A stretch of 64,000 nt of DNA, taken from the IMG/VR virus record IMGVR_UViG_2645727901_000008; one strand, 5' to 3'. The translations under genes and the position numbers were made by a program. Positions 3,853 through 54,269 of the stretch are shown one piece after another (position 1 is the stretch's first letter; each line of letters starts with the position of its first letter). The notes beneath the pieces were generated by a model, which saw only the letters and a program-made list of their open reading frames with translations, had not been told where the DNA came from and did not search any database. This DNA comes from a virus. Its lineage: Duplodnaviria; Heunggongvirae; Uroviricota; Caudoviricetes.

Positions 3853-3855
3853 TTA

Positions 3856-16146: not shown

Positions 16147-16194
16147 GATGGCAGTCTCTTACTTTTCAATGATTTTTCTATGATTGATCAAAAC

Positions 16195-16224
16195 TGTTAG
16201 ATATTCAAAATTGATTTTCTAACA
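16195..16224. promoter_or_regulatory. Palindromic site TGTTAGA-N16-TCTAACA in the divergent region upstream of ref
   Basis: Read from sequence; about 50 bp upstream of the ref ATG. Confidence 0.5.
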
Positions 16225-16263
16225 CAAAACATTAATATCATTCCTGATAACTGTTTGGAGGAC

Positions 16264-19505: not shown

Positions 19506-19530
19506 TCAAATCATTTACGCACTCAAAATG

Positions 19531-19560
19531 CGTTAGAACATTGATTTTAGTTTTCTAACA
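19531..19560. promoter_or_regulatory. Palindromic site CGTTAGA-N16-TCTAACA followed by TATTAT, upstream of the 19603 gene
   Basis: Read from sequence. Confidence 0.5.
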
Positions 19561-19602
19561 TATTATTTTACCACTCGGAACAAAACAGAGTCGGTATGCA
19601 TT

Positions 19603-22023: not shown

Positions 22024-22242
22024 TGCAGGTGGCATTTGTTGGCCTGTTACCGCATCCGATCCGCCTTTGGGCGGATATGTCACTCATAAAAACGCATTTT
22101 TTTACTACTGATGGCGGCATTCCGGCACCAAAGCGCCGTCATACCGGTATTGCAGCGGCACGACGAGCAGCAAAGAGACGCAGGAGAGCAAAGCGATGAA
22201 AAACCGTAAAGCAAATAAAGTGGCAAAACAGGAGGCGGCGCA

Positions 22243-22404
22243 GTGAACCAGCAAACCAGAATAAGCGATAAGAGCCTGACCAGACTGATTGCCGATGCGG
22301 ACAAGGTGCTGGAGCGGAACACACCCGTTGCCGATGAGGAATGGTGGCAGGATTTCCGGGCTGCAATGCTGGAACTTCAGGAACGTCGTCGGGAGGAGTT
22401 GAAG
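22243..22404 (+). pseudogene. Remnant of an Ead/Ea22-like C-terminal segment (about 150-bp imperfect direct repeat of 21717-21870)
   Basis: DNA and translation (NQQTRISDKSLTRLIADADK...) repeat the C-terminal part of ORF 21343-22023. Confidence 0.4.
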
Positions 22405-22667
22405 TGAGTGAATTAAAGTGTCGAATTAATGGCAATCAGATAGAACCGTGTGCGGTACTGGCAAAAGCACTCGAATATGGAAATCCAGCCTTTAAGAGTA
22501 AAGGCATATTTATCCCGGAACGCGTGAATATAAATACCGGCGAGCCAGGCTTAGACATTGCTCAAATTCACTCCGGCCAATATGTCGGTCGTGGTGTTGC
22601 CATGTGTTTTTGCCCGTTCTGTGGTGAAAGTCTGAAAACATGGAAAAAGGAGGCAACCAGTGAGTGA
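22405..22667 (+). CDS. Small Cys-containing protein (paralog of 20612-20911), probable GTG start
   Basis: Paralogous C-terminus; the longer ORF-track start overlaps the remnant. Confidence 0.45.
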
Positions 22668-23214
22668 AGTTAACTATCAGGCACTGCGTGAGGTGGCAGA
22701 GGCCGCGAAGGGGGATACGACGTGGCAGAACCTACAGGCTTTTCATGCTGCGGCAACGCTGGAGGTTGTGCAGGCGTTGCTGGATGAAAACGAAAGACTG
22801 TGTCGCGATCTGATAGCTCGTAATGGTGAGATTGAAGGGCTTCGGGAGTGGGCAGAAGAACTGGAGGCACGGGAAGTGGCTTTGCCAGTAGCGTCATGCA
22901 TTGTTGAAGATGGATGCATGTGTGTTGATGGGTTCAGTGAGTATGTAGGTCACTCGCTACCTGATGGAATGCATGAGCTTTATGCTGCCCCACCAGCGTC
23001 GGTAGTGCCGGAAGGACTAGTTAAAGCAGTGCGTTTCTATGAACAGGTAAAGTGTGAGAATCCGCCAGTCGAAACCGGAGCATGGAAAGACGCTATTGAC
23101 TGGGTGCTCAAAGAGGCTTGCCAGGCTGTAAACATTGGCATCAAAGGAGAGAGATATGGCAACTTTAACAAAAAAAGAACAAGCATGGTTGAACGAATTA
23201 CAGGACGTTCTTGA
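22660..23214 (+). CDS. Ead/Ea22-like protein (184 aa)
   Basis: MSEVNYQALREVAEAA N-terminus. Confidence 0.55.
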   Translation: MSEVNYQALREVAEAAKGDTTWQNLQAFHAAATLEVVQALLDENERLCRDLIARNGEIEGLREWAEELEAREVALPVASCIVEDGCMCVDGFSEYVGHSLPDGMHELYAAPPASVVPEGLVKAVRFYEQVKCENPPVETGAWKDAIDWVLKEACQAVNIGIKGERYGNFNKKRTSMVERITGRS

Positions 23215-23419
23215 TCGCTGTCCGTCACCGAAAAAAATAGGCTTTTACACCATTGGCGATAAAAACATTTACCTGTATGACCTACGCCGCATGGATGTAA
23301 TCATGGAGGCTCTTGATAATCGTTCGTCGATGGATTGGTGTGCTGCTGTCCATGATATGAATGCCGGATTTGATGAAACGATTTTGTTCCCCTCATCAGT
23401 TGAAAGCACTGCGGGTTAA
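23135..23419 (+). CDS. Hypothetical small protein
   Basis: ORF in packed array; start uncertain. Confidence 0.35.
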   Translation: MASKERDMATLTKKEQAWLNELQDVLDRCPSPKKIGFYTIGDKNIYLYDLRRMDVIMEALDNRSSMDWCAAVHDMNAGFDETILFPSSVESTAG

Positions 23420-23429
23420 GGAGTAACAC

Positions 23430-23813
23430 ATGACCACTATTACCAAAGAACGTATTGAATTGTTCATTAAAAATCCGCTTGAAAACGGACTTACCCGTGG
23501 CGAACAAATGGAACTGGCACGAATTGCACTGGCCTCGCTTGAGGCAGAGCCAGTTGGTGCATTCCACATTGCTGAACAGCAAGTTGACGGCACAAGTGAC
23601 TACATCAAGGATGGGGAGTGGCCTATTGATAATGGGACAATTGAAGTCTACGCCGCCCCGCCAGTACCGGTAGTACCTGCTGCATTACCTGAGAACGACG
23701 ATGAGGACGGGCAGGACATTGATTATCTTGAGCCATCTGAAGTTTACGCGCTTGGGCGAACAGCTGGCTGGAACGCCTGCCGTGCTGCCATGCTTAAGGG
23801 AGATAAATCATGA
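23430..23813 (+). CDS. Hypothetical protein (127 aa)
   Basis: ORF in packed array. Confidence 0.45.
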   Translation: MTTITKERIELFIKNPLENGLTRGEQMELARIALASLEAEPVGAFHIAEQQVDGTSDYIKDGEWPIDNGTIEVYAAPPVPVVPAALPENDDEDGQDIDYLEPSEVYALGRTAGWNACRAAMLKGDKS

Positions 23814-24181
23814 TTAATCGTACCAAGCTGGAGCACATCCTCGAATATGCCAGACAGCAGAAGCGCTTTGGTCAGCATTGCAAAATTCCGCCAGGAGATA
23901 TGGTTGAAATCGTGGAGATTGCCATGCGTAAGGCTGGCAACTATCCGGTAACTCCGGATAGTTGGATAAGCTGTAGTGATCGAATGCCTGAAAAGGGCCA
24001 GAACGTGCTTATTTCGGTGAATTTCGATAGCTCTCTGGTTGAACCGCTAATATGCTCCGCACGCTATACCGGAAGCACCTTTCGGCGCGGAGATGCAACG
24101 ATTAAGCCGGGTAATGGTATTGAGCAAGCAACTCACTGGATTCCGCTACCGGAACCGCCGCAGGAGGTTAACCGTGGCTAA
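23810..24181 (+). CDS. Hypothetical protein (123 aa)
   Basis: ORF with stop/start overlap. Confidence 0.45.
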   Translation: MINRTKLEHILEYARQQKRFGQHCKIPPGDMVEIVEIAMRKAGNYPVTPDSWISCSDRMPEKGQNVLISVNFDSSLVEPLICSARYTGSTFRRGDATIKPGNGIEQATHWIPLPEPPQEVNRG

Positions 24182-24455
24182 CCTGCAACTTGCCGTCAAA
24201 GGTGAATACTTCGATGCCATGATTCGCGGGGAGAAAACAGAAGAATATCGCCTGTGTAATGACTACTGGAATAAGCGAATTATGTTCCGGGAATATGACC
24301 GCCTGATTATCACAAAGGGATATCCGAAGCGCGACGATTCCAGTCGCAGAATAGACGTCCCGTATAACGGATATGAAATCAAGACAATCACACATCCGCA
24401 CTTCGGTGATAAACCGGTAAAGGTGTTCGCGATAAAAGTGAAGATTAATAGCTAA
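24174..24455 (+). CDS. ASCH (PUA-like) domain protein, GTG start
   Basis: GTG at 24174 preceded by GGAGG; translation VANLQLAVKGEYFDAMIRGEKTEEYR has the shape of an ASCH domain. Confidence 0.45.
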   Translation: MANLQLAVKGEYFDAMIRGEKTEEYRLCNDYWNKRIMFREYDRLIITKGYPKRDDSSRRIDVPYNGYEIKTITHPHFGDKPVKVFAIKVKINS

Positions 24456-24478
24456 ATTTCAATTAACACGGAGTAATT

Positions 24479-24772
24479 ATGTGGCGCGGTAATAATCATG
24501 GCGGAAGCCAGATGATACTTACCGAATATACGTTCGACCCCAAAACCTATAAATCACGTTCAGTATATTTGCTTCGGCACAATAGCCGCGTAAGGAATAC
24601 CGTGCTGGAGCAAAATCTGACCGTTGAAATGGATAATTTTGGGAACTTCAAGCCAACAATTGCGCTTGATGATTTTCCGCGTGGTTTAAGCGAAAGAGAA
24701 GCAATGCTGAAATTAGCAGAATGGCTACAAAGATTAAGCATTGCTATTGAAGATAACTGGTCTGAACCTTAA
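24479..24772 (+). CDS. Hypothetical protein (97 aa)
   Basis: ORF in packed array. Confidence 0.4.
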   Translation: MWRGNNHGGSQMILTEYTFDPKTYKSRSVYLLRHNSRVRNTVLEQNLTVEMDNFGNFKPTIALDDFPRGLSEREAMLKLAEWLQRLSIAIEDNWSEP

Positions 24773-24778
24773 ATTTAT

Positions 24779-25153
24779 ATGATGACACTAAAACATTTTC
24801 TTGACCGCCCATTATGGGCGGCAGCCGCAGGCTATGATTTTAATTATATGGATTGCATGTCTTATACTGCCAATGCATACGACCATTCGTTCAGCCTGCT
24901 GTTTAATTCTTTAAGAATATTGCCGGAAACAGAAGTTGGAGAGCTTCATTTATGGCTATTGGGTTTTATCGCGGCTGTCGTTGGTATTGCTGTATGGCCT
25001 TTTATTTTCTGGCTGGTGGCTGTTGTAGTGTGGTTTAAGTGCAAGACATACCGGAAAAAGTATTTCTTAGGTGATGGAATGACTGATATTGCCAAAATGA
25101 ACATTGAAAAATGGACTAAGGAATGTGAAAAGAAATGGCGCAAAAAGAAATGA
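24779..25153 (+). CDS. Hypothetical membrane protein (124 aa)
   Basis: Hydrophobic stretch LWLLGFIAAVVGIAVWPFIFWLVAVVVWF. Confidence 0.45.
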   Translation: MMTLKHFLDRPLWAAAAGYDFNYMDCMSYTANAYDHSFSLLFNSLRILPETEVGELHLWLLGFIAAVVGIAVWPFIFWLVAVVVWFKCKTYRKKYFLGDGMTDIAKMNIEKWTKECEKKWRKKK

Positions 25154-25758
25154 CCAGAATCACTGAAGAGCGTATATCAGAGATTATTTCCCGTATCGAA
25201 ATGTATGGTCACGGAGCTGGATATACGGCAGATGAAGTATTGGAAATAGCCCAGCAGATGCTGGCCTTGAGACAAAAAGAGCAACATGAAAGTAATACGT
25301 GTAGATTGAATTTTGAGCAGTGGCTGGAACAGCAACGCGGGAAAATCGATGTGGACTGTGGTTGTGTGTCCACTGAAACATTCATGCACTGGCTGCGGGT
25401 AGCTTACGAGGCTGGCAACTATCCGGATATTCCGGATAGTTCGGCGCAAGCACCAGGGAAGGGGGGGTTCCCCGGAGAGCGGATCCGAATTAAGCCGCAT
25501 GTTTACCGTGAACTGGTTAACCGCCTCCACGATACAGCGATCAAGTGTGCTGGCACCCAGCAATTACGGGAAAGAATTAGCCGCGTTTTGGGCGAAGTTA
25601 TTACACCAGATCGTCATAAACAAGCCGAGAAAAGCGGCCTGGAAAGGAGTCATCTTGAGGCGGCATTAAACATTAAACCGGGGCATACGCTAGGTGTCAT
25701 TGATGCCATGTTGGTTCATGAAATGGCTAAGGCGTTATTGCCACTGGAGGCTGATTAA
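25135..25758 (+). CDS. Hypothetical protein (207 aa) sharing a segment with ORF 16419-17042
   Basis: HVYRELVNRLHDTAIKCAGTQQLRERI resembles HIYRELVNALRDVAIECHGTDQLRARL. Confidence 0.45.
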   Translation: MAQKEMTRITEERISEIISRIEMYGHGAGYTADEVLEIAQQMLALRQKEQHESNTCRLNFEQWLEQQRGKIDVDCGCVSTETFMHWLRVAYEAGNYPDIPDSSAQAPGKGGFPGERIRIKPHVYRELVNRLHDTAIKCAGTQQLRERISRVLGEVITPDRHKQAEKSGLERSHLEAALNIKPGHTLGVIDAMLVHEMAKALLPLEAD

Positions 25759-30420: not shown

Positions 30421-30493
30421 AGCACCCTCCGAAATAGGCGAGGGTACTTTACAGCAAAGATAACAATCTAAAAAGATGTGTTAGAAATTTAAT

Positions 30494-31705: not shown

Positions 31706-31906
31706 GAAACTTAGGAATTTTTTTCCTTTCCCCGTAGATGGGCAATGCATTGCTGGCGTGGGCTTTAAGTTATGCCTGGCAGTTTTTAAGCAGAATTTTC
31801 TAAATTGGATGACAAAAAAATGCATCTTGATCCTTTACTCACCCTGTTATTCGGCATAGATTTGTCATAGTAATTTTATGTTAGAAAACTAAATCGAGTA
31901 GGAATA

Positions 31907-32944
31907 ATGAGTAAGAAGTCGATCGAGAAAGAGTACAAACGGTTCCTGCAAACCGCTGAACGGTGGAAAGAGCTGGTGGTCGCAAACTCTGTTTTCCATG
32001 ATACCAGTTATGCCGGCGAGGAATTCCGCCACGTTGCACTAACACATGATCAGAATGTACTAGAAGAAGCTGAAAAGTGCCTCACAGAATGGAAAGCCTT
32101 TGTTGACTTGTGCCGTAACGCTGACGGCAAAGCGTCCAACATTGTTGAGTCTGTATATTCTCCGATCCCATTCATTATTGAGGACACAAATCAAAGCACG
32201 CATATTGTTGTGCAAAGCGCGACCACCACCCGCTCATTTACGCGCGAAAATCTGCTCAAAAAATATGATGCAATTATAAAGAAAAGCCTGAAAAACAAGA
32301 TATTTTCGCAGATTGTTGGTGCACTTGAAGAAGAGCGCCGTTTTTTCGCATCAGAACCTGAAGGGGAAGTTTACCGGGCGCGCAAAGATGGATACACAGA
32401 TGTAGTGCTTACAACAAACATTGAAGGCAGCAATGCTCTGTCACGATTCAGGGTAGGCGCACACGGAGCCTTAGTGTTCGCAAAACTTCCGAACACCACA
32501 GTGCCCGTTGTTAATAATGTCGGCGAACGTCGCAGCATTACTATTTATTCTGGGGTTGAGTCGATACCTTGCGGCCTGCTTGGTGACTTTAGCCTCTATC
32601 GCGTTCGCGATCTGGAGAAACACCAACCAAGCTATGTTGCGAAGTCATATATCTTGCGAAACATCGACATCCGCAATGAGAGCTTAAAGAACAAATCAGC
32701 CAAAATGCTTGAGGAAGCCGATCCGGCTATTCGCCATATCATTGAGCGTAAAATACAGACAGCACGCGAAGCGATGGCGAGACTGAATAAAATGGATCTG
32801 GAGTTGTTAGACGTAATGATGACATCCGGAGATGACCTGACAGGCATAAAACTGACAGACGCGCGGAAAAGATACGGTAAAACCATAGAAGAACGTTACG
32901 GGTTCACTTTCTCCCAAACACAGCACGCCGCTAAACTCTGGTAA
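31907..32944 (+). CDS. Hypothetical protein (345 aa) at the position P1 uses for its c1 repressor
   Basis: Convergent with pacB and adjacent to the recombination site; TGTTAGAAAA motif 22 bp upstream; no similarity to P1 C1 that I can recognise. Confidence 0.5.
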   Translation: MSKKSIEKEYKRFLQTAERWKELVVANSVFHDTSYAGEEFRHVALTHDQNVLEEAEKCLTEWKAFVDLCRNADGKASNIVESVYSPIPFIIEDTNQSTHIVVQSATTTRSFTRENLLKKYDAIIKKSLKNKIFSQIVGALEEERRFFASEPEGEVYRARKDGYTDVVLTTNIEGSNALSRFRVGAHGALVFAKLPNTTVPVVNNVGERRSITIYSGVESIPCGLLGDFSLYRVRDLEKHQPSYVAKSYILRNIDIRNESLKNKSAKMLEEADPAIRHIIERKIQTAREAMARLNKMDLELLDVMMTSGDDLTGIKLTDARKRYGKTIEERYGFTFSQTQHAAKLW

Positions 32945-36231: not shown

Positions 36232-36309
36232 TAATCCCCCGGGCAGGAAATGACCGAGGGGATGATAATGAGAATGTTAAAACTGTATAGACTGGTAAAA
36301 AGATGATTA

Positions 36310-36339
36310 TATTAGAAAATTAATATTAAATACCTAACG
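36310..36339. promoter_or_regulatory. Degenerate palindromic site TATTAGA-N16-CCTAACG overlapping a TATAAT-like hexamer upstream of lpa
   Basis: Read from sequence; same 16-bp spacing as the other sites. Confidence 0.3.
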
Positions 36340-36732
36340 CTACCAGCGAGACAAACGAACAACATGTTTCACTTTTGCGATCCACTTTCCGCGATAACTA
36401 TTGATTACGGCCTGTGCCAGCTTCAAATTGGCTTCAAAATCAGCCTTACTACCATCAGACTCCACCAGCATTCCTCCATCTATTTCTGGTAAACATAGAT
36501 AATCCTGCTCAACCTGCAGCGGCATTGATGGCTCTCTGAATGGCGTTACTTGCTCTGCTTTCCAGCGAAATCTAACCCTCATCCCCCTGGTGGTCATTAC
36601 TAGATAGCCTGTTATAGTGCTTTTATGGCCCACATCAGTACGCGTGGCATTGCATGACACGATCTTACAGTTAGCGATAGACCACTCCATATTGGTGGCC
36701 TGTTGAGTGCTTAATTTGGTAGTCCCGTACAT
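36340..36732 (-). CDS. Hypothetical protein (130 aa)
   Basis: ORF coupled to the upstream gene. Confidence 0.45.
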   Translation of the reverse strand: MYGTTKLSTQQATNMEWSIANCKIVSCNATRTDVGHKSTITGYLVMTTRGMRVRFRWKAEQVTPFREPSMPLQVEQDYLCLPEIDGGMLVESDGSKADFEANLKLAQAVINSYRGKWIAKVKHVVRLSRW

Positions 36733-37761: not shown

Positions 37762-37837
37762 TGGTGGCCCCTACCGGACTTGAACCGGTGACCGTGCGAT
37801 TATGAGTCGCCAGCTCTAACCACTGAGCTAAAGGGCC
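37762..37837 (-). tRNA. tRNA-Ile2 (anticodon CAU, ileX-like; would be read as Met without lysidine context)
   Basis: Reverse complement GGCCCTTTAGCTCAGTGGTTAGAGC...GACTCATAATCGC...GGTTCAAGTCC...GGGGCCACCA nearly matches E. coli ileX. Confidence 0.85.
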
Positions 37838-37848
37838 AATTAGTGTTT

Positions 37849-37962
37849 TATTTTCGACGCCTGAGATTCTTCGCGACTTGTTCTACGCCGTATACGATCA
37901 CAAGTAGAAACAGCAAAAACCATCCAGGGTTCTTATCGATATACGTCCAAAAATCCATCATG
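37849..37962 (-). CDS. Possible small membrane peptide (about 37 aa)
   Basis: Translation MMDFWTYIDKNPGWFLLFLLVIVYGVEQVAKNLRRRK. Confidence 0.25.
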
Positions 37963-38120
37963 AGTTCCTGAACGCACCTTCAATAATCGGCAATAGCAAT
38001 ACCACAGCTACTGAAACTAATGCCCCATCAGCCAACACCGACATCACTTTGCTGGTGAAATCCACCAGTACGGACAAAACGAGAAAGCCAATGGCGCCCG
38101 CAATACGCGCCTTGCCAATC
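37959..38120 (-). CDS. Possible small membrane protein (about 53 aa)
   Basis: Translation MIGKARIAGAIGFLVLSVLVDFTSKVMSVLADGALVSVAVVLLLPIIEGAFRNS. Confidence 0.25.
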
Positions 38121-38121
38121 A

Positions 38122-38577
38122 TTACAGATAATCTTCCACACGAAGGCCAAGACGGCGACCAACCTCTTCCAGAACCTTATGCTCCGCAGGTTCGATTTCA
38201 CCATCTGCTTCAGCGATCGTGAGCATGTTCACGAAGACTTCTTCCGCTTCTTTGGGATCGTTTTTGATATCTTCAATTTCGCGGAGGATATTCATGCGAC
38301 CAACACGGAAACCAGCTTCCAGTTGCTCAGTAAAACGGGTGATTGTTGCGGTAATTTCGTTGCCAAAATGACTTAAGCGAGGATTAGAGCGGACAAGCTG
38401 ATCAAGTTTCGCTGTTTCTTCCTTTTCGATTTCACCATCTGCGGCAGACACCAGCAAACAGCCACCGATGATGGCCTCCATCAGATCGCGATTCTCAACC
38501 CTTTTCAGCTCTACTTTTGCTGAAGCGACTTTCTTACCGAAAAATTTACCGAACATTGGTTTTCCCTCAATAAACAT
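38122..38577 (-). CDS. TerB-like (tellurite-resistance family) protein; start may be ATG at 38556
   Basis: Repeated helical ...ADGEIE... segments typical of TerB-like proteins; GAGGGAAAA RBS before the internal ATG. Confidence 0.5.
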   Translation of the reverse strand: MFIEGKPMFGKFFGKKVASAKVELKRVENRDLMEAIIGGCLLVSAADGEIEKEETAKLDQLVRSNPRLSHFGNEITATITRFTEQLEAGFRVGRMNILREIEDIKNDPKEAEEVFVNMLTIAEADGEIEPAEHKVLEEVGRRLGLRVEDYL

Positions 38578-38823
38578 GACGTATTTATTAGGTTGCGGTG
38601 CCTGGTGCCTCCAGGTGACGTTAACCAGTTAACAATTAACGCCGGGATTTTTGTCTTCACAATTAAGGAGGATTGTTTTAACTGTTCCGCGTGCGCTTAG
38701 CCGCATTCACCGCAATGGTAAGAGCACTTGGCTGGCTGGGCGGCGATGACGCCTGTACGCATTTGGTGAACCGGTTCTGCTTCCGGCATTCGCTTAATTA
38801 GCCAAATACTCTTAACGTTGCAC

Positions 38824-38910
38824 TGGCGGAGAGTAATGGAATCGAACCATCATCGCTTGCGCAATGGGACGGTTTTCAAGACCGCTTGAGCACCATGCTC
38901 CCTACTCTCC
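38824..38910 (-). tRNA. tRNA-Ser-like (anticodon UGA, long variable arm), atypical D-arm
   Basis: 7-bp acceptor GGAGAGT/ACTCTCC, anticodon loop CTTGAAA, T-loop TTCGATT, encoded CCA; folded by eye. Confidence 0.5.
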
Positions 38911-39045
38911 CGTTATTGTGGCGACCGGTGCTGATCTCCGGCTTGCGGTTATTTCAGACTCTCACGGGCGTTTAATTGCCCCGCCGAACAGCTCTTTTCC
39001 GCAATAGCTGCAATGTCTTTCGCGCATCAGCCTGCGCATTCACCA

Positions 39046-39135
39046 CAATGTTGAGAACACTGGTTGTCACGCTGCAACGCAACATTTATTCGTAGATTGG
39101 GATATGACCCCGTTACGCCAGTGTTCTCAACGTTG
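39046..39135. repeat. 18-bp inverted repeat CAATGTTGAGAACACTGG ... CCAGTGTTCTCAACGTTG flanking about 54 bp
   Basis: Read from sequence; one mismatch between arms. Confidence 0.55.
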
Positions 39136-39283
39136 TAGTGCCGGTTACGGTTCCGGCCAGGCCTCTTCCTCAACGGGTTGTTCTCCATACGGACTACCGT
39201 TTATTGGTCGTTCCTGCGGTTTATGTTGTGAAGCCAGATGCTTATCTTCTGGTTGCTTCAAAGAGCTGCACTTCATCACAACG

Positions 39284-39356
39284 GTAAGGGTACTTCGTAG
39301 GGATTCGAACCCTCTGCCAAGCACGGCGATCTCCGACGTCGCAAAATACCCTTACC
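39284..39356 (-). other. tRNA-like element with T-arm (GGGTTCGAATCCC) and 10-bp closing stem but no canonical anticodon arm; possible tRNA pseudogene
   Basis: Folded by eye; T-loop present, cloverleaf incomplete. Confidence 0.25.
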
Positions 39357-39364
39357 TGTTGCGT

Positions 39365-39440
39365 TGGTGCCGATTAACGGGATCGAACCGCTGACCATTC
39401 GCTTACAAAGCGACTGCTCTACCAACTGAGCTAAACCGGC
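39365..39440 (-). tRNA. tRNA-Thr (anticodon UGU)
   Basis: Reverse complement GCCGGTTTAGCTCAGTTGGTAGAGC...CTTTGTAAG...GGTTCGATCC...CGGCACCA. Confidence 0.85.
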
Positions 39441-39444
39441 AATT

Positions 39445-39531
39445 TGGTGGGGAGTGATGGAGTCGAACCACCCGAGTCGCAATGACAGTAGATTTACAGT
39501 CTACCCCGCTACCCCTACGGACTAACTCCCC
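39445..39531 (-). tRNA. tRNA-Tyr-like (anticodon GUA, class II long variable arm)
   Basis: Acceptor GGGGAGT/ACTCCCC, anticodon stem-loop GTAGA-CTGTAAA-TCTAC, T-loop TTCGACT, encoded CCA. Confidence 0.6.
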
Positions 39532-39536
39532 TAAAG

Positions 39537-39612
39537 TGGCGATGGTGGGTGGATTCGAACCACCGACCGACAGCTTAGAAGGCTGCTGCTCTATCCTACT
39601 GAGCTACACCAT
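39537..39612 (-). tRNA. tRNA-Arg (anticodon UCU)
   Basis: Reverse complement GATGGTGTAGCTCAGTAGGATAGAGC...CTTCTAA...GGTTCGAATCC...CACCATCGCCA. Confidence 0.85.
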
Positions 39613-40853
39613 CACTTGCCGGGTACGTCTCCGGCGAGGGCTTCCACCTCCGTATGCTTTTCGGCGCACCGCGCCCTGGCTGCAATTCAGTAACAGGGGA
39701 TGCATAACCCTGGCTTCCAGCGTGATTAGCGCCTTCAGCATGACGGGATATACCCGTAACCAACAAACTTTCCCATATACCATCAAACAATGGCTGTTAC
39801 GCGGGAGGGACGTAACAGGTAAGGGCGCTGACCAGAAAGACCTGACCCTTCTCATTCATCTGGTTAATCACACCAGCGCCCTTGCCTGTTATGTCTCCCC
39901 GTTCCCTAATACACAGACGGGGACACTCTGCGGTCGATTTTTTGACGGGGGACGACTCATACCCCGTGGCGTCTGGCTTCTTAGGCCGCTACCATCATCA
40001 GATCATCGTTTGCATTTACTTTAATGGTCGGTTTCTAAACCGCCGCAAAGCCGCTAACCATGACGAAAACCCTAAAAAAGCCCACCCGAAGATGGGCAAA
40101 TACGCTACATCTCACACAAGAAAGAAGCCGACTGCCTGAGCTGGATTCACTTTCAAATGCCCGCAGAAAGGGAACACAAGTCGGCTTCTTTCTTGATGCG
40201 GCACTCTCTCCGCCCGTCACCGTTCTGTCTCGGTTGTCGCGTTTGCCACGCCAGCCGTAACGAGGTTTAAAGTCTTTGCACGTTTCCATCACTCGACTGC
40301 CGTCTGTGGCTGTTCGTTGCAGCGGGGGTGCCTCCCCCTGGGGATATCCCCGGCCTTACCCCATTCTTTCAAGACACAATGCAAGGCCGCATCCGCATAG
40401 GTGCATTACCGCAACATTAAGGAGACTTAGGGCAAAAGGTAATCGCCACAAAAAAAATCCCTATGCCTCCTTAATGTTGAGGATGTGCATTGATGATGAT
40501 TCGATGCGGCGAGTCCCGTTACTCTCTGCCGGACCATCATCAATGAACATCTTAAAAAGACCTTCCGTGGCTCAACATGTCTTGTCGTTTACTCCGTAAA
40601 GTGCTCTCTCTGAAACCACTTTACGCACTAAACCTGCTGAACTTTGGCTTGCTCGGTGCCAAAGCGAGTCCCTGTATGTATGTAATTTTCTAACACTTTA
40701 ATTTGTTATTTGCTGGTGGGCGAACAACAACCAATAAGTGACTATCAAGCCCAGCAAGCGAAATGTGGCAACGCTCCACCAGCAAGGAAAATTCTAAGTT
40801 AAGTTACTCTCACAATCAATACGTTCGTTTAGTGAAATTAGATTTCTAACATT
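39613..40853. other. About 1.2 kb without a convincing CDS; rich in long-loop inverted repeats
   Basis: Only short, overlapping ORFs in all frames; 13-bp inverted repeat CAACATTAAGGAG...CTCCTTAATGTTG around 40408-40478 and others. Confidence 0.4.
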
Positions 40854-42074
40854 TTATTTCCCATAAAGATCTTCTACGCCCCCATTCTTCTTGTCCCATT
40901 CGTTAGCCCACACCCGGCAGGCATCAATAATTTCTTGACGACGGTCGCCCTGCATAAAGGGGATGCTTTCATGAAAACTACTTGGGATACAGGCCACGCT
41001 GAATACGGTATCAAACGCAGTCTGTTTGATAGCTTCCAACGTCTCTGGGCGCATTTTCAATTCATCGATCGGCGCATCCTTAGAGTCCATAATCCGGCGA
41101 TGCAGGCGCGGGAAATCAGTCTCCAGGTACGCCATAATTTTATCTGCCAGGCATTCGTCTATATCGGTATTCCAGTCCGTTTCGAAGCCGGGCAGGCGAT
41201 AGTAAAGCGGCGTTCCCCATACTGATGGGATCACATCCATCGTCAGCAGGCGGTTGGTTCTAATTTGTTGATGGTAATTAGCCGTCAACAGAGCTTCACC
41301 ACGCTGACCAGTCTCCGCAACCAGACCATGCGGGTACTCATGGATATAGGCAATAGCATCCACCCCGTCATACATGAGCGGGAATGTCTCTGGCCTTTGT
41401 CCCATACCACAAGCGCGGTTCAGATCATGACCAAGCTGTGAGCACTCTCGTTTCAGCGTTTCAATAATGTTCTGCGCTGTTGCTAACTTTTTACGCAGTG
41501 TGACGCCTTCGCCTTGATACTTAATGCATTGCTGATTCAGCTCTGTTAAACGCTCTTTTAGTTCCCGACGCTCTCTTTTCAGCGCACGGTTATCCTTCTC
41601 CGCAACATCCAGTCGTTTTGACAGACTGGCTGGATAGTCTTTTTTGTAACGACTCAAATCGGCTTCTGCGGATTTGCGCAGTGTGTTTGCCTGTTCAAGA
41701 CGCGCTTCCAGATTACCGATCTCACTACGCATATTCGCGGCAAATTGATTAACAGCATTGCCAAGACTTTCAACTGTCGCTGATACGCCTGTGACTTGTG
41801 AAAAACGGATCAAGCCATCATTAACGGCTTGTTGATATCCCTCAAACTGATCCACCAGCTTGTTGTAATCAACCGTCCCTTCCTCAAGTAGCTGGTTGAT
41901 CTCCGCGACCAGGTTATCAGTAGTGGCAATGACGCTCTCATGTAACCGTCTGGACAGGTCATCCCCCGGATTCCGCTTTTGAATAAGGGCGATCTGTGTC
42001 CGCAGCGTTTCAATCGCGGCTGAGATGATTTCCAGATTAGAAGTATCAGTTTGTTGACTCATTGCAGTTCCCAT
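40854..42074 (-). CDS. Hypothetical coiled-coil protein (start likely ATG at 42074 or 42062)
   Basis: Long ORF; the ORF-track start would place a TTTCTAACA motif inside the gene. Confidence 0.5.
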   Translation of the reverse strand: MGTAMSQQTDTSNLEIISAAIETLRTQIALIQKRNPGDDLSRRLHESVIATTDNLVAEINQLLEEGTVDYNKLVDQFEGYQQAVNDGLIRFSQVTGVSATVESLGNAVNQFAANMRSEIGNLEARLEQANTLRKSAEADLSRYKKDYPASLSKRLDVAEKDNRALKRERRELKERLTELNQQCIKYQGEGVTLRKKLATAQNIIETLKRECSQLGHDLNRACGMGQRPETFPLMYDGVDAIAYIHEYPHGLVAETGQRGEALLTANYHQQIRTNRLLTMDVIPSVWGTPLYYRLPGFETDWNTDIDECLADKIMAYLETDFPRLHRRIMDSKDAPIDELKMRPETLEAIKQTAFDTVFSVACIPSSFHESIPFMQGDRRQEIIDACRVWANEWDKKNGGVEDLYGK

Positions 42075-42177
42075 TGTTTTTTGCAAGATTAGTTTTCTAA
42101 CATATTTTATTAGTATGAGAACAAGAGCGAAAGATGTGATAAACAAAAAACCCGCTAATCGGCGGGTTTTTGAGCGG

Positions 42178-42688: not shown

Positions 42689-43132
42689 TTAATCAAGACA
42701 AACATATTCCGTGATAGCTTTTATGGCTTCATCGGCACTGCGCGCCTCAAAGCAGTAATAGCCTGCTTCCGTGAGGCGAGTCATCCAGACGAGCTGTTCG
42801 GGAGTCAGACGGTTTCTCCCGTGCTTCATCTCAATGCGCATTCCGTGATACCCACCACGAGCAAGGTCAATAGAAAGGTCCGGATAGCCCTTCTTCTGAC
42901 CTTCTGCCACCATCTTAATGGCTGTCCTTTTGCCTCTCAGGCCGCCGTTCGGTGTTGAGTGTGTGTGCTCATACACGTATCGCATGTTGCGATACAGCCA
43001 ATCCAGAACGCGAACCTGTTCGTAATGTTCGTAATTCCGTTTTAATAAGTCAGGATTTCTTTCTAACTCTCTCAGTGCAGCAGCGTGCGGGGATATTTCA
43101 GAATACGCACTATGATGCCTGCGTCTTCGCAT
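42689..43132 (-). CDS. VRR-NUC domain nuclease-like protein
   Basis: GYPDLSIDLARGGYHGMRIEMKHGRNRLTPEQ resembles the VRR-NUC (PD-(D/E)xK) motif; ATG at 43132. Confidence 0.6.
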   Translation of the reverse strand: MRRRRHHSAYSEISPHAAALRELERNPDLLKRNYEHYEQVRVLDWLYRNMRYVYEHTHSTPNGGLRGKRTAIKMVAEGQKKGYPDLSIDLARGGYHGMRIEMKHGRNRLTPEQLVWMTRLTEAGYYCFEARSADEAIKAITEYVCLD

Positions 43133-43320
43133 CAAATTTCTAACACAAACTTACTGAATTCATGAACACGATAATAACAAGAGCGTTAGTTTTATCAAAC
43201 CGAGGGGAATACTACTGAAGAGATAGGCGGATGCAACAGGTCGGACTTGTTTTTAGAGTAAATGGTGATGCGGGTCAACAAGCCGGGTAAATTGTATGTC
43301 ATTTACCCAACTTGTTATTT

Positions 43321-51045: not shown

Positions 51046-51531
51046 ATGGCAAACATTGAACCTCGCTGGCTAATTGAAGCCCGTAAGCACATTGGCCTGA
51101 CTGAAATAAAAGGCGCTAAACACAACCCTGAAATCGTTCAGTTCTGGCGCGACATCAAGCGCGGCGGAATTAAAGACGATGAAACGCCGTGGTGCGCAGC
51201 ATTTGTCGGTGCAATGCTGGAACGTGTAGGCATCCGCTCAACAAGATTTGAGTCGGCAAAATCCTATCTGGATTGGGGCGAGAAATTAGATACACCGGCA
51301 TACGGATGTATCGTTGTATTTACCCGCGTAGGCGGTGGGCACGTAGGCTTCGTTGTCGGACGCCGTGCCAATGGCGATCTGCTTGTCCTGGGTGGGAACC
51401 AGGGGGATGCTGTTAATATTCGCGCATTCCCAACATCAAGAGTGTCTGGCTATCGCTGGCCTGCTGGCGAACCACGCAATACCGCTCTGTTACCAGTCGG
51501 AGACGCAGCAACCTCAACTAATGAGGCATGA
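51046..51531 (+). CDS. Putative peptidoglycan hydrolase-like protein (TIGR02594-like)
   Basis: PWCAAFVG...GGGHVGFVVG pattern; weak family assignment from memory. Confidence 0.4.
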   Translation: MANIEPRWLIEARKHIGLTEIKGAKHNPEIVQFWRDIKRGGIKDDETPWCAAFVGAMLERVGIRSTRFESAKSYLDWGEKLDTPAYGCIVVFTRVGGGHVGFVVGRRANGDLLVLGGNQGDAVNIRAFPTSRVSGYRWPAGEPRNTALLPVGDAATSTNEA

Positions 51532-51555
51532 AAAAAGCCCCGGCCAGGCCGGGGC
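51531..51555 (-). terminator. Rho-independent terminator (GCCCCGG-CCAG-CCGGGGC plus T6 on minus strand)
   Basis: Hairpin and A6/T6 tract read from sequence. Confidence 0.55.
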
Positions 51556-51563
51556 ATCACGCT

Positions 51564-51764
51564 TCAATTCACGATCCAATCATTACCGACTATATCAGCC
51601 GTCGATAAATCAACTTCCCGGATCTGGAGTCCATTAATACAAAACCATCCGGTAGTAGAGTAATTATCAGGCCAGGCCCATACACCAACACTCCATGCTT
51701 TACGGCGGCACACTTCAGCCTGTCCTTCCCTGATTTTTTTTACCGCCTGCATGATGTCCATCAC
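51564..51764 (-). CDS. DUF2829-like small protein (66 aa), separate-ORF counterpart of the C-terminus of ORF 13615-14541
   Basis: AVKKIREGQAEVCRRKAW...ADIVGNDWIV; GTGATG start overlaps upstream stop. Confidence 0.45.
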   Translation of the reverse strand: MMDIMQAVKKIREGQAEVCRRKAWSVGVWAWPDNYSTTGWFCINGLQIREVDLSTADIVGNDWIVN

Positions 51765-52468
51765 TCACCTCCCCAACCGATCACCTGGAATTGCCCCATT
51801 TTGGGGTGATACCAGCGTTTTCCTCGGTGTTCAGCCTCCGACATCATCCGGTTAAAAGCATTCATGAAGGGAGATAAGGCCACGATGGAACGACGCGACA
51901 ATACCCCCTCTGGAGTTAAAAACTCATGTGTATCGGTGGGGATCCGGTAAGCGTTAACCAGGTTGCGACATTTGGCTTCGGTCAGGCCGCATTTTGCCGC
52001 CAGCTGGCGGTAGCCAATGTAACCTTCCGGCATGTTGCCCTTCTTGATTTGCTCGACGGTTTCTACCACCTGGCTAACCTTTGACTCAACAACATGAAGC
52101 CGCTTTTGCTGCTGAACTGCATTTGCAGCCATTGCGGCGATCATCTCTATTTCGGTCAACGGCTGGCGTGCTTGTTCTTCCAGTTCGCGCCAGCGGTCCA
52201 CCAGCCGGGCGGTGAATTCGGGAGAGAGCTGCGCGACGACGATAATGCTATCGCGCTTGCCTTGCTCGCCTTCGAAGACGTAAGCCTCAACACTACGTCG
52301 TAGTCCTAAGTTATTGATTTTTTCGAAAACCTCAATTTGAGGACGAACAATAACGCCACCTTTGTCTAATGTCTCAATAGTGCGTTTCACATTGTCATGA
52401 CGTTTTCCCACCAGCTCCGCGATCTCAATGCTGGTCATTGATGGCTTTTCGAGAATGCAGATATCCAT
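51761..52468 (-). CDS. Rha-family regulator / antirepressor-like protein (split form)
   Basis: MTSIEIAELVGKRHDNVKRTIE N-terminus; two DNA stretches nearly identical to copy 1. Confidence 0.65.
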   Translation of the reverse strand: MDICILEKPSMTSIEIAELVGKRHDNVKRTIETLDKGGVIVRPQIEVFEKINNLGLRRSVEAYVFEGEQGKRDSIIVVAQLSPEFTARLVDRWRELEEQARQPLTEIEMIAAMAANAVQQQKRLHVVESKVSQVVETVEQIKKGNMPEGYIGYRQLAAKCGLTEAKCRNLVNAYRIPTDTHEFLTPEGVLSRRSIVALSPFMNAFNRMMSEAEHRGKRWYHPKMGQFQVIGWGGE

Positions 52469-52692
52469 CAGTGAGCCTCCGCAATGCCGGGATTGGTAAT
52501 ATTGCGATACCAGGGATTGGTGTTTGGTTGTGGGGAAGTGGAGAAACGACCAGTGAGAACGCCATACTGATCAGGGATCAGAGAACGGGCTTCTTTTTCA
52601 GTTGCGGCAATTGCGAAGTGATCGCAGTGTTTTTGCAGGGAGTGAAAACGCCAGATGAATTCTGGACGTGAGCAAGGATTGGCATTAACCAT
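52468..52692 (-). CDS. Icd-like small protein (paralog of 14541-14756)
   Basis: Shares PEFIWRF...AIAATE...AH with the paralog. Confidence 0.4.
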   Translation of the reverse strand: MVNANPCSRPEFIWRFHSLQKHCDHFAIAATEKEARSLIPDQYGVLTGRFSTSPQPNTNPWYRNITNPGIAEAH

Positions 52693-53022
52693 AGTTACGG
52701 CCTCACTAACAGGTTTAACAACCTGCTACCCGCTGCTAAACAGGTGGCAGGACGTGACGGGGTTAGCAGACTGGCGTTAGTGAAACCAGCAGGCCGAAGC
52801 CTCCCCATCACGCCCCACCATAATTTGGGCGTAACGCGGTTTTACGGACACAAAAATACCGCAATATCGGATATCTGCGGTTGTCCGCACTAACATTCAG
52901 GCTGCTAAACCCGGTCGCAGAATTTGCTACGACGACATGAATATAAGCCTGAAAACATGGAAGATCAACTAAAAATTTCAGCAATAGATGACTTCAGTCG
53001 ATGATGCAGATCATACATTCCG

Positions 53023-53052
53023 ATTTAGAAACGGCAAATTAATTTTCTAACA
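53023..53052. promoter_or_regulatory. Palindromic site ATTTAGA-N16-TCTAACA about 330 bp upstream of the second icd/ant-like module
   Basis: Read from sequence; imperfect left half. Confidence 0.45.
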
Positions 53053-53106
53053 CAAAATGTCGAGCGAGCATTTTCCGATCATTGGGATGTTTTGTAGACG
53101 CACAGG

Positions 53107-54069
53107 TCACCCCCTAAAGCCAGCCGGGATTGACCAATCCTCACGGTCAAATTCAGACCGATAGCCACGCTGTTTCATCAGGTCAAAGGCTTCACCAATG
53201 GTTGCACACCCCTGGGAGCCAGAATAATCCATTGAGAAATCCAGGGCACTGGATTGTTTAGGCTTATTCACTGCGGTAGCGGCACTACGTATCCATGCAA
53301 ATTTTTTTGCCAGCTTTTCAGCGGTACGATACAGAGCCTGCCGTTTTGTGTGCCCCTCGTCTGAACGACGCTTTGCAGCTCTCGCTTTTGCCGCCGCCAG
53401 GCAGTGGTTGGTCTGTTCTTCCCTGATTACTGTTTTTTTATCCAGCACCCCGTTATCCGTTTGAGAACTATCTGCTGGTGAAGCCTTTGGCTGAACCGCG
53501 CATGATCTTTCTCTTCTTTTGGCTATAGAGTGACTCTTATTTTCTATTGGCTGTTCATTTTGAACATGGGGGGACTTGTTCAATTTGAACAGGGGGTTCC
53601 CAGTTTCAAAAAAATAACGAACCTTTGAAATCAACTGCTTAACCAGTTTTGTGGCGTTGGCAAATTTGATGCCCTGCTTACCCCCTATCTCCATTGCTAC
53701 ATGAATGAAGTGGAGAAATTGTGTCGTAAACCGATATACGTTACACACCTGGGCATTGTTATTCGCTACCTGATGTTGCTTAACAAGCATTCCGCACTTC
53801 GTCGCTTCAGCAAATGCCCGGCGTACAGTAGAAATACTGCGTCCTGTAATCTCGGACATATCAGCATATGAGCGACGGATCATGTATTCATCGGTAGACC
53901 CTGCCAGGTTGGCGAACTCGGCAATAATGGCGCTATGTGAAGGGGAAAGAAGACCGCTATGACGAGCAAAAAAACTCAACTGATGACCTTTGATTTTTTT
54001 GTGGTATTCAGTGTTGTTTTTATACTCAGAAGTGTTGAAAGTTACTGAAACTGAATTTAAAATATTCAT
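53107..54069 (-). CDS. RepL-like HTH protein (possible lytic replication initiator)
   Basis: HTH-like SYADMSEITGRSISTVRRAFAEATKCGML; TGTTAGAAATTT motif upstream. Confidence 0.4.
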   Translation of the reverse strand: MNILNSVSVTFNTSEYKNNTEYHKKIKGHQLSFFARHSGLLSPSHSAIIAEFANLAGSTDEYMIRRSYADMSEITGRSISTVRRAFAEATKCGMLVKQHQVANNNAQVCNVYRFTTQFLHFIHVAMEIGGKQGIKFANATKLVKQLISKVRYFFETGNPLFKLNKSPHVQNEQPIENKSHSIAKRRERSCAVQPKASPADSSQTDNGVLDKKTVIREEQTNHCLAAAKARAAKRRSDEGHTKRQALYRTAEKLAKKFAWIRSAATAVNKPKQSSALDFSMDYSGSQGCATIGEAFDLMKQRGYRSEFDREDWSIPAGFRG

Positions 54070-54165: not shown

Positions 54166-54269
54166 GCAGTCGCTACCGGAGCAGTGACCGCGATCCTACT
54201 CAATCACATCGGACAGGATCAACAGTGTATATAAATACACTATGTTAGAAATTTAATTTCATGCAGCGG

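Follow-up and report, generated by a model that had tools for sequence, protein, structure and literature searches.

Positions 53055-51537, on the minus strand of the window (the whole 64,000-nucleotide stretch of DNA that was analysed), very probably form an immI-type immunity operon, the second such copy and a paralogue of the first, in a D6-like plasmid prophage of the P1 family; in action it is most likely P1 immI-like. Over 3.1 kb, spanning orf17-20, the window shares 95.9% identity with phage D6, and at least 80% of the module is present in 110 plasmids. The D6 genome was reportedly published by Gilcrease and Casjens in 2018. A second immI-like module had been proposed here by an earlier, sequence-only reading; the proposal is upheld by a C4 RNA, its a1/b1 and a2/b2 targets, icd, a gene of the anti-repressor class and a paralogue elsewhere in the window. 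The order of the operon is candidate operator/promoter, a1/b1, C4, a2/b2, icd, Rha/Roi-type gene, 65/66-aa ORF and terminator, the three coding sequences being chained via TGATG stop/start overlaps. D6 already carries an annotation of the module, which as such is not new. The new element is the link to the Tad2 fold, which lies in the small protein, the sole unexplained part of the module; a literature search for a link between DUF2829 and anti-repressors found none. Features of the operon and its upstream neighbour are as follows.

54240-54257, plus strand: candidate monovalent operator half-site CTATGTTAGAAATTTAAT, 20.1 bits, outside the matrix training set, 5' of repL
53107-54069, minus strand: repL-like lytic replication gene, directly upstream of the operator
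53020-53055, no strand: bivalent palindromic D6-type candidate C1 operator, core TTAGAAA-N12-TTTCTAA at 53025-53050
53010-53037, minus strand: promoter-like element, -35 TTGCCG (53037-53032, in the palindrome), 16-nt spacer, -10 TATGAT (53015-53010)
52940-52968, minus strand: second promoter-like element, TTGATC, 17-nt spacer, TATATT, directly 5' of a1/b1
52888-52908, minus strand: upstream C4 targets, a1 UUAGCAG (52908-52902) and b1 GUUAGUG (52894-52888)
52740-52825, minus strand: C4 antisense RNA gene, Rfam RF01695, 70 bits against a gathering threshold of 45, full length (1-87)
52701-52739, minus strand: downstream C4 targets, a2 (52739-52733) and b2 (52710-52704)
52468-52692, minus strand: icd-like gene for a 74-aa homologue of the cell-division inhibitor, with 61% identity to P1 Icd (E 8e-27)
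51761-52468, minus strand: Rha/Roi-family putative anti-repressor gene, 235 aa, PF09669 (36.8 bits against a cut-off of 29.9)
51564-51764, minus strand: small ORF with a predicted Tad2/DUF2829 fold, 66 aa from GTG 51764
51537-51555, minus strand: strong intrinsic terminator with 8 G-C pairs followed by TTTTTT, 9 nt past the small-ORF stop, which marks the end of the operon

C4 antisense RNA, targets and candidate operator

A regulatory RNA, the absence of which the sequence-only reading had named as refuting its proposal, was found, with the C4 match at 70 bits accompanied by a match to the Rfam c4-a1b1 model (RF03163) at 52894-52946 (51.5 bits against a gathering threshold of 46.7). The 5' segment running from c4 to icd has 91% DNA identity to P1/P7. 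The recognition loops of C4 read CACUAAC (b', 52782-52776) and CUGCUAA (a', 52769-52763), a hybrid specificity in which a' is of the P7 type and b' of the P1 type, and b2 abuts or overlaps the GAGG Shine-Dalgarno of icd. Covariation was scored over 8 distinct sequences from relatives, in which slid controls were 25-53% paired overall and 27-53% paired for a2/b2. Between C4 and a2/b2, the 14 pairs were 100% paired, with 8 double changes and 0 one-sided changes; between C4 and a1/b1, the 14 pairs were likewise 100% paired, 8 of them showing double changes. The loops and the four target sites thus covary perfectly, which points to selection on their pairing. Among the relatives there are two types of a and four of b, with perfect three-way compensation. 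C4 specificities are therefore diversifying naturally, so that many related phage-plasmids can coexist without cross-immunity. A single phage here carries two immI modules with orthogonal C4 RNAs.

Upstream of these elements, the sequence-only reading had placed a palindrome about 330 bp before the icd-like start and likened the arrangement to operator control in P1. The palindrome is present at or near that position, 333 bp 5' of the icd ATG (52692), and is above chance; its imperfect arms reach over 53015-53060, and it is placed as Op51 is, over the -35 of P51a. The promoter-like element at 53010-53037 is the positional equivalent of P1 P51a/Op51 by the geometry of the P1 GenBank annotation, and that at 52940-52968 is the equivalent of P51b by alignment with P1. 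No terminator was predicted between repL and the operator.

The palindrome is part of an operator-like motif that recurs genome-wide. Its pattern occurs 6 times at up to 2 mismatches, against 0.36 expected, and 4 times at up to 1 mismatch, then exclusively with the 12-nt spacer. A half-site matrix yielded 17 sites in the window as opposed to 0.5 in shuffled sequence, and 8 of the 17 lie outside the training set. The two halves of the palindrome are unequal: the left half is weak (8.6 bits), whereas the promoter-distal half-site, TTGTGTTAGAAAATTAAT (53055-53038, minus strand; 25.5 bits), is the top-scoring half-site of the window. The motif stands at about 12 loci across the 64 kb, among them 2173, 16192, 31876, 36307 and 54240, and precedes c1, lpa, ref, repL, hrdC-dmt and pmgS; the sites before c1, lpa, ref and repL presumably correspond to P1 Op99, Op88, Op2 and Op53. 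The P1 annotation agrees for Op51, Op53 and Op99, and the half-site at 54240-54257 is the positional equivalent of Op53 (P1 OrepL annotation). It is a candidate operator of D6-type C1, and the genes it precedes correspond to the C1 regulon of P1. The palindrome survives as an island in two plasmids with otherwise unrelated flanks (L005 and L012), and both hexamers of the upstream promoter-like element are kept in L012.

No match to the operator consensus of P1 C1, ATTGCTCTAATAAATTT, occurs at up to 3 mismatches, and the palindrome is therefore not a P1-type operator. The C1 encoded in the window, at 31907-32944, is a remote homologue of P1 C1 (20% identity, E 8e-8); we infer from the motif, which is different, recurrent and conserved and overlaps the -35, that D6-type C1 would bind it. 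The palindrome was ruled out as a terminator, being A+T-rich and lacking a T-run, with no terminator predicted there. The same A+T-richness, the position just 55 bp past the repL stop codon and the tie of oriL to repL in P1 (P1 annotation) would suit a site of another type, for example a replication element of the adjacent repL or an IHF/Fis-type site. The motif, however, is spread over its dozen or so loci upstream of genes without clustering at repL, the palindrome overlaps the -35 hexamer exactly like P1 Op51, and it is retained in L005, a plasmid with an IS-type TnpB gene in the position of repL, all of which makes such a site very improbable.

Icd, the Rha/Roi-type protein and the small ORF

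The icd stop overlaps the start of the Rha/Roi-type gene (TGATG at 52468). The 235-aa product of the latter has an N-terminal winged HTH, a long helix and a conserved C-terminal core, and matches phrog_63 'anti-repressor Ant' (4.9e-48), while at the DNA level its gene resembles roi of Stx and HK97-type phages. With residues 1-232 of the copy-1 protein (308 aa, 13615-14541) it shares 67% identity, and it is without the C-terminal domain that this paralogue carries. BLASTP against P1 Ant1/2 gave E 0.30, no homology; the protein is a putative anti-repressor by its position and family label. The operon, most likely immI-like in action, has a different putative effector.

The 66-aa product matches residues 244-308 of the copy-1 protein (45% identity, E 5e-19), and is a detached form of its C-terminal Tad2-fold domain. 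Its start is more likely ATG 51761 (65 aa), as annotated in D6 (orf17) and by PGAP: GGAGG (51772-51768) lies 6 nt before this ATG, which forms a TGATG overlap with the stop of the 235-aa ORF. The expectation that the small ORF is separate here agrees with these signals, which mark a translationally coupled cistron where copy 1 has a fused domain. A split antirepressor-like gene had also been proposed. The two separate ORFs do match the fused copy 1, but the direction of the split may be the reverse: stand-alone homologues occur in other lineages and canonical DUF2829 proteins are single-domain, from which the fused form may be the derived state.

The label 'DUF2829-like' holds for the predicted fold and for the family more than for the protein taken alone. 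Against PF11195, the small protein scores 14.9 bits where the threshold is 25 (E 0.04), although aligned end to end; five of the seven family members match PF11195 at E<=1, the best at 3.6e-9. It also matches phrog_7385, a group labelled 'unknown function'. Profile searches of PDB sequences returned weak Tad2/AcrIIA7 matches only (E 0.1-0.8), with P0008 alone doing no better. Proteins of the Tad2 type are homotetramers; they sequester gcADPR or another immune signal and inhibit Thoeris, CBASS or Pycsar defence. The AlphaFold2 model, built from a 7-sequence alignment, has a pLDDT of 89.3; its 12 best PDB matches are all Tad2 (TM 0.71-0.78, probability 1.0), and its top BFVD viral matches are DUF2829/Tad2-like and include proteins of 65-66 aa, the TM range over both sets being 0.71-0.79. 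The small protein is thus predicted to have a Tad2/DUF2829 fold. Ligand contacts of SPO1 Tad2 are W25, N26, W73, S76, T78 and D79 (bioRxiv 10.1101/2023.05.01.538930). Their equivalents, taken from a motif alignment to HgmTad2 rather than from structural superposition, are W24, S25, V51, S54, A56 and D57, so that three of six are kept (W24, S54 and D57, for W25, S76 and D79) and N26, W73 and T78 are replaced by S25, V51 and A56. The family-invariant residues (I11, R20, R21, W24, G27, W29, D57, D62 and W63) include the equivalents of W25 and D79.

The family is small. A word-indexed homologue search with the 66-aa ORF as query returned near-identical or truncated copies and nothing else, and an exhaustive profile search gave 7 matches among 1.84 billion representatives, too few for a deep alignment to be built. 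Genome and viral collections scanned for relatives of P0005 and P0006 held none. Within PLSDB, the family is confined to D6-like plasmids; in two other phage-plasmid lineages (L015 and L017), the homologue is the only gene behind its own C4 RNA. All family members whose context was covered, P0008 being outside this set, sit in a C4-controlled operon.

Proposed action of the operon and readings of the small protein

A repressor operator combined with a processed antisense RNA over an anti-repressor operon is the textbook P1 mechanism, and by analogy with P1 the operon would work as follows. The candidate C1 operator covers the -35 of the upstream one of two tandem promoters, and C1 would lower transcription of the operon in the lysogen. 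C4, processed from the same transcript, would pair with a2/b2 and block translation of icd, and translational coupling and polarity would keep both proteins downstream of icd off; C4 would also work in trans on a superinfecting phage of the same C4 specificity. Upon infection or derepression, transcripts would outrun C4 and all three proteins would be produced, the Rha/Roi-type protein presumably serving as the anti-repressor.

The weakest step concerns the small protein. That it is a small-ligand-binding, sponge-type immediate-early product, made alongside the anti-repressor, is put forward tentatively, at somewhat under an even chance. An anti-Thoeris role in particular is weakly grounded, because only three of six ligand contacts are kept and the stand-alone ORF evolves neutrally. 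The sponge-fold (Tad2/DUF2829) domain is nevertheless tied to C4 operons in three architectures: alone, coupled after icd-ant, and fused to Ant. Either an anti-defence gene has been placed under the tightest immediate-early control of a P1-type phage, or the fold has a new use in anti-repression.

The latter would hold if the small Tad2-fold protein were a working part of the anti-repressor (an oligomerising subunit, a C1 contact or a ligand sensor that modulates anti-repression) and not an anti-defence sponge, which is judged somewhat unlikely. The domain is fused to the anti-repressor in the copy-1 paralogue, where it is under purifying selection (pN/pS 0.14), and the recombinants P0119 and P0127 join the copy-2 N-terminus to the fused C-terminus of copy 1; covalently attached in copy 1, it would be supplied about equally in copy 2 by translational coupling, for which the TGATG overlap and good Shine-Dalgarno provide. 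Its confinement to C4 operons, P0008 aside, recalls the P1 C4 operon, which holds back an anti-repressor, and its gene, the only one under C4 control in L015 and L017, might encode the effector itself. So tiny a family is also unlike the broadly distributed Tad2. Against this, no anti-repressor with a Tad2 fold is known, the small protein has no similarity to P1 Coi (the 69-aa C1 inactivator), and the model that AlphaFold gave for the fused 308-aa protein (pLDDT 69, C-terminus below 60) is too poor for any confident docking of the Tad2-like domain on the Ant core. The homologues in L015 and L017 do without a neighbouring Rha/Roi gene, which means that the domain cannot be a mere appendage.

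The substitution pattern raises a further reading, in which the 66-aa ORF of copy 2 is redundant and functionally relaxed, a leftover still open for lack of time, and the fused copy-1 domain is the active one. Among D6-like plasmids, the small ORF has a pN/pS of 1.22 (pS 0.022), in an alignment in which icd (0.04) and the core of the 235-aa gene (0.08-0.09) are strongly constrained; its variable codons comprise 14 nonsynonymous and 4 synonymous changes, which fits a rough neutral expectation of about 3.3:1 and, by estimate, would very rarely arise at the ratio of the fused domain. In plasmid L008, two family-invariant positions carry G->D and D->Y, and frameshifted or truncated variants are on record (P0002, P0003 and P0007). 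Yet the frame is intact in all 9 complete plasmids (9/9), the 90% cluster of the protein holds 165 member sequences, the start context is sound, with GGAGG 6 nt before an ATG that overlaps the preceding stop, and the 7-sequence alignment gave a confident model. A ratio near or above 1 would also be expected under diversifying selection on a counter-defence protein, and the changes are mostly singletons in a very young genealogy, in which deleterious variants are still unpurged. A relaxed leftover is considered doubtful, rather improbable on balance.

Beyond the tentatively preferred sponge-type product, the Tad2-fold domain might act as a ligand sensor in the lysis-lysogeny switch, binding a nucleotide-derived immune signal, blunting defence and gating the anti-repressor. 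This is a long shot. Were it true, the prophage would read an immune alarm of its host (of the Thoeris, CBASS or Pycsar type) in deciding whether to stay or leave, and the three architectures would all be forms of a single C4-controlled sensor/anti-repressor system, one peculiar to D6-like phage-plasmids.

Comparison with P1/P7, D6, Tad2 and isrK

The operon shares with immI of P1/P7 its order and spacing: the candidate operator over the upstream -35, a1/b1, C4, a2/b2 over the icd ribosome-binding site, and translational coupling of icd to the next gene. It differs in having a 36-bp palindrome of another half-site, a Rha/Roi-type putative anti-repressor unrelated to Ant1/2, and a third coupled cistron with a predicted Tad2 fold; repL is upstream here, whereas it is downstream in P1, kilA is absent, C4 has a hybrid specificity, and the phage has two orthogonal modules.

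Phage D6 orf17-orf19 (GenBank MF356679) and pYU39_89 (PMC6799933) represent the same locus (95.9% identity). In the D6 record, orf19 carries an icd-like label, orf18 is given as a 'putative anti-repressor, similar to HK97 Roi' and orf17 as 'hypothetical'; the record, taken alone, annotates no c4, targets, promoters, operators or orf17 relationships.

To Tad2 (SPO1 Tad2, MoTad2 and HgmTad2/AcrIIA7), the likeness lies in the predicted fold, with an N-terminal helix, R-x-x-W and a C-terminal D-x-x-x-x-D-W. The small protein has 65 aa where Tad2 has 89; relative to SPO1 Tad2 it is 23 residues short, a shortfall that, judged by length alone, is put down to a reduced beta2-beta3 region. Unlike Tad2, the domain here is anti-repressor-fused in copy 1 and is C4-controlled.

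The Salmonella Gifsy-1 isrK-orf45-anrP region (RF01394) offers a last parallel. Copy 2 differs in matching c4-a1b1 instead, but an isrK match lies beside the copy-1 C4 (14943-15021) and a sub-threshold one occurs in L015; these matches indicate that C4-type leader RNAs before anti-repressor genes are widespread in enterobacterial prophages.

The copy-2 operon and its fused paralogue

The stretch at 51000-54100 matches Escherichia phage D6 at 95.9% identity throughout. D6 is a plasmid prophage related to P1, and its annotated genes here are orf16 (peptidoglycan hydrolase), orf17 (hypothetical), orf18 (putative anti-repressor, similar to HK97 Roi), orf19 (icd-like) and orf20 (repL-like). The D6 record carries no annotation of c4, its targets, promoters, an operator or any relationship of orf17. 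At least 80% of 51500-53110 was present in 110 of 579 matching plasmid records, which are mostly from E. coli and Salmonella. The features of the two modules are as follows.

Features of copy 2
53025-53050, palindrome core TTAGAAA-N12-TTTCTAA; arms reach 53015-53060 at 76% complementarity
53037-53032 and 53015-53010, promoter-like element 1, -35 TTGCCG (inside the palindrome) and -10 TATGAT
52968-52940, promoter-like element 2
52894-52946, a1/b1 element (RF03163), Rfam 51.5 bits vs 46.7
52740-52825, C4 RNA (RF01695), full length, Rfam 70 bits vs gathering 45
52468-52692, minus, icd-like gene, 74 aa (ORF listing)
51761-52468, minus, putative anti-repressor ORF, 235 aa (ORF listing), TGA stop 51763-51761
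51772-51768, minus, GGAGG, 6 nt upstream of the small-ORF ATG
51564-51764, minus, small ORF, 66 aa from GTG 51764 (ORF listing)
51761-51759, minus, ATG of the 65-aa form, overlapping the 235-aa ORF stop as TGATG (read from sequence)
51555-51537, minus, strong intrinsic terminator, 8 G-C pairs and T6, 9 nt past the small ORF

Features of copy 1
15555-15572, single operator half-site ~530 bp upstream of the module, overlapping the ref stop codon
14943-15021, isrK match beside C4, Rfam 62.7 bits
14811-14898, C4 RNA, Rfam 77 bits
14541-14756, icd-like gene
13615-14541, fused Ant, 308 aa

A TGATG of the same kind joins the end of icd to the 235-aa ORF start. The sequence-only reading had described the anti-repressor-like gene of copy 2 as split, and the contrast with a fused copy 1 is correct, since residues 1-232 of the 308-aa protein correspond to the 235-aa protein (67% identity) and residues 244-308 to the 66-aa protein (45% identity, E 5e-19). 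The icd-like proteins of the two copies are 45% identical. The proposed separate 66-aa ORF is likewise present; D6 and PGAP annotation use the 65-aa ATG form. A CHAP/TIGR02594-type peptidoglycan hydrolase gene (51046-51531) converges on the operon, with its stop 5 nt from the terminator stem (51537-51555); this gene and orf17 share a common genealogy much younger than that of icd and ant (low synonymous divergence).

Elsewhere in the window, 9876-13332 and 20918-25410 have no counterpart in D6 and may be accessory or defence cargo; the former contains ORFs of 357 aa (11564-12637, HELGH metalloprotease-like motif) and 101 aa (12637-12942) just downstream of the gene for copy-1 Ant. Four tRNA genes (Rfam 41.9-72.1 bits), the last weakly tRNA-like, lie on the minus strand at 37765-39613; three are annotated in the equivalent region of D6.

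Probable control by C4 RNA and a repeated operator-like motif

The regulatory RNA expected at the module was found, with C4 and a1/b1 matches above gathering. By alignment with P1 and P7, the a' loop of copy-2 C4 and both a targets have the P7 form (CUGCUAA/UUAGCAG), and b' and both b targets the P1 form (CACUAAC/GUUAGUG), so that its predicted specificity is a hybrid of P7 a and P1 b. The copy-1 loops differ again from those of copy 2, and the two modules should therefore be orthogonal. Pairing was counted in an alignment of window 52685-52950 and relatives that covered nine D6-like copy-2 modules, P1 and P7. For a'/a2 with b'/b2, and separately for a1/a' with b1/b', 112/112 cells were standard pairs, with both-sided changes in 8 of 14 pairs and one-sided changes in none; sliding the partner by 1-3 columns gave 25-53% pairing and at most one covarying pair. 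Selection thus acts on the RNA-target pairing in these modules. The D6-like plasmids, P1 and P7 together carry two a types and four b types (GUUAGUG, GAUUGUG, ACUUACG, ACGAAUG), and every type is accompanied by corresponding changes in both targets, which suggests that secondary-immunity specificity is still diversifying.

The palindrome pattern occurs six times in the 64-kb window at up to 2 mismatches (0.36 expected) and four times at up to 1 mismatch, the latter with a 12-nt spacer only (spacers of 8-16 tried). Five palindromes were used to build a half-site matrix, which found 17 sites of at least 15 bits, against 0.5 in shuffles, and 8 of the 17 (15555, 30476, 31876, 40681, 40837, 42088, 43131, 54240) lie outside the training set. 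The consensus is about TGTGTTAGAAAWTTAAT, present as single sites or paired and inverted (36-bp palindromes). Of the two halves in copy 2, the promoter-distal one scores higher than any other half-site in the window (25.5 bits), and its partner is weak (8.6 bits). Sites were located relative to genes via the D6 annotation, those named being immediately upstream.

Copies of the putative operator motif
2173-2208, paired, upstream of the hrdC-methylase operon (hrdC-dmt)
15555, between ref and the copy-1 module
16192-16227, paired, upstream of ref
31876-31893, upstream of c1
36307-36342, paired, upstream of lpa
42088-42105, upstream of pmgS
53020-53055, upstream of copy-2 c4
54240-54257, upstream of repL
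19528-19563, 30476-30493, 40681-40698, 40837-40854 and 43131-43148, further copies

These outline a putative D6-type C1 regulon of hrdC-dmt, ref, pdcB, c1, lpa, pmgS and repL. P1 has C1 operators before ref (Op2) and lpa (Op88), and its annotation places others before c4 (Op51), kilA-repL (Op53) and c1 (Op99). The P1 operator consensus was not found in the window, which fits with a C1 only remotely homologous to that of P1 (20% identity, pairwise E 8e-8); identity to D6 C1 is 89.9%. In two plasmid sequences with unrelated upstream DNA (L005 and L012), the palindrome and promoter hexamers are kept between flanks that cannot be aligned. In the 2970-4455 region of L005 (NZ_CP058654.1) an IS200/IS605-type TnpB gene takes the place of the window's repL, and the palindrome, in a more symmetric form, still precedes c4. 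The upstream palindromic site of the sequence-only reading is present. With its recurrence, its overlap with the -35 element and this island-like retention, a replication or architectural site in place of an operator is a very improbable reading of it. We infer that C1 binds here, the palindrome very probably being the operator of the D6-type repressor for the copy-2 operon.

The putative anti-repressor and the small protein of predicted Tad2 fold

Copy-2 Icd shares 61% identity with its P1 counterpart and is under strong constraint (pN/pS 0.04). In the 235-aa protein a Phage_pRha domain scored above threshold and PHROG 63 ('anti-repressor Ant') was matched; comparison with P1 Ant1 gave no similarity (E 0.3). 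That the protein is a putative anti-repressor we infer solely from its place in a C4-controlled operon and from these family labels. Its core is constrained (pN/pS 0.08-0.09), and its N-terminal winged-helix segment (52245-52444) is hypervariable and mosaic among plasmids (nucleotide diversity 0.17-0.23 vs 0.02-0.05 nearby). Two database proteins (P0119 and P0127) are recombinant alleles joining copy-2 N-termini to copy-1 fused C-termini.

The small ORF alone aligned end to end with PF11195 (Tad2-like) at 14.9 bits, below the cut-off of 25. A profile search run exhaustively over 1.84 billion representatives returned only seven relatives; five of seven aligned family members matched PF11195 (best 3.6e-9), and the family gave weak PDB sequence matches to AcrIIA7/HgmTad2 and SptTad2. 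The AlphaFold2 model (pLDDT 89.3) had Tad2 structures as all of its 12 best PDB matches (TM 0.71-0.78, probability 1.0) and DUF2829/Tad2-like proteins, some of 65-66 aa, as its best viral matches, so the earlier DUF2829-like call holds at the level of fold. The gcADPR contacts of SPO1 Tad2 are W25, N26, W73, S76, T78 and D79 (bioRxiv 10.1101/2023.05.01.538930); by motif alignment their equivalents are W24, S25, V51, S54, A56 and D57, and W24, D57 and D62-W63 are family-invariant. With half of the pocket changed, a length 23 residues shorter than SPO1 Tad2, and Tad2 homologues that bind very different signals (bioRxiv 10.1101/2025.08.24.671296), a ligand-binding role is possible but not supported in detail.

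The family, PHROG 7385 (function label unknown), occurs in three architectures, all C4-controlled: as a lone gene, as a cistron coupled behind icd-ant, and as a domain fused to Ant. The first is found in two ~90-kb phage-plasmid contigs, where a distant homologue is the only gene behind its own C4 RNA and icd and ant are absent. L015 carries StbA/StbB-type stability genes, as in D6, and the flanks of L017 are ~77% identical to D6-like plasmids.

Minimal modules
L015, 3746-4238: a1/b1 3746-3798, C4 3860-3948, b2-like site just before ATG 4001, 68-aa gene, terminator
L017, 3752-4320: a1/b1 3752-3804, C4 3869-3956, b2 overlapping an AAGGA Shine-Dalgarno, 96-aa gene, terminator

The three architectures argue for a genuine effector role of the family in immI-type operons. 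The N-terminal extension in L017 is similar to the fused form's Pro-rich linker, and the minimal modules could thus also be deletion derivatives.

Among the roles weighed, a sponge-type binder of a ligand, produced as an immediate-early protein, ranks first, and is put forward tentatively. Next comes a role within the anti-repressor, as one of its subunits or domains, which is rather unlikely. Slightly less likely still is a relaxed duplicate in copy 2 only, which is compatible with either sponge or subunit for the family as a whole. For the stand-alone ORF, nine D6-like sequences gave pS 0.022 and pN 0.027 (ratio 1.22), its variable codons being 14 nonsynonymous and 4 synonymous, mostly singletons, and one plasmid is altered at the family-invariant G and D. 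Total nucleotide diversity resembles that of the neighbours, so the difference is one of distribution over codon positions. The fused domain of the copy-1 protein, by contrast, has pS 0.34 and pN 0.049 (ratio 0.14, eight sequences), and the domain is therefore functional in that form. The detached copy is without measurable constraint and is therefore either relaxed or diversifying; its frame is intact in 9/9 complete plasmids, and truncated versions are also on record.

Comparison with P1 immI

The palindrome and two promoter-like elements of copy 2 are arranged like Op51/P51a and P51b in P1, and b2 (52710-52704) adjoins the GAGG Shine-Dalgarno of icd, as in the P1 annotation. The copy-2 module is most likely an immI-type operon controlled by a C1 operator and C4 RNA, with the same mode of action as in P1. 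Both the locus (D6 orf17-orf19) and the kind of module are already known; copy 2 differs from P1 immI in its anti-repressor family, the extra Tad2-fold cistron or domain, the operator, the hybrid and diversifying C4 specificities, and the presence of two presumably orthogonal modules within one phage.
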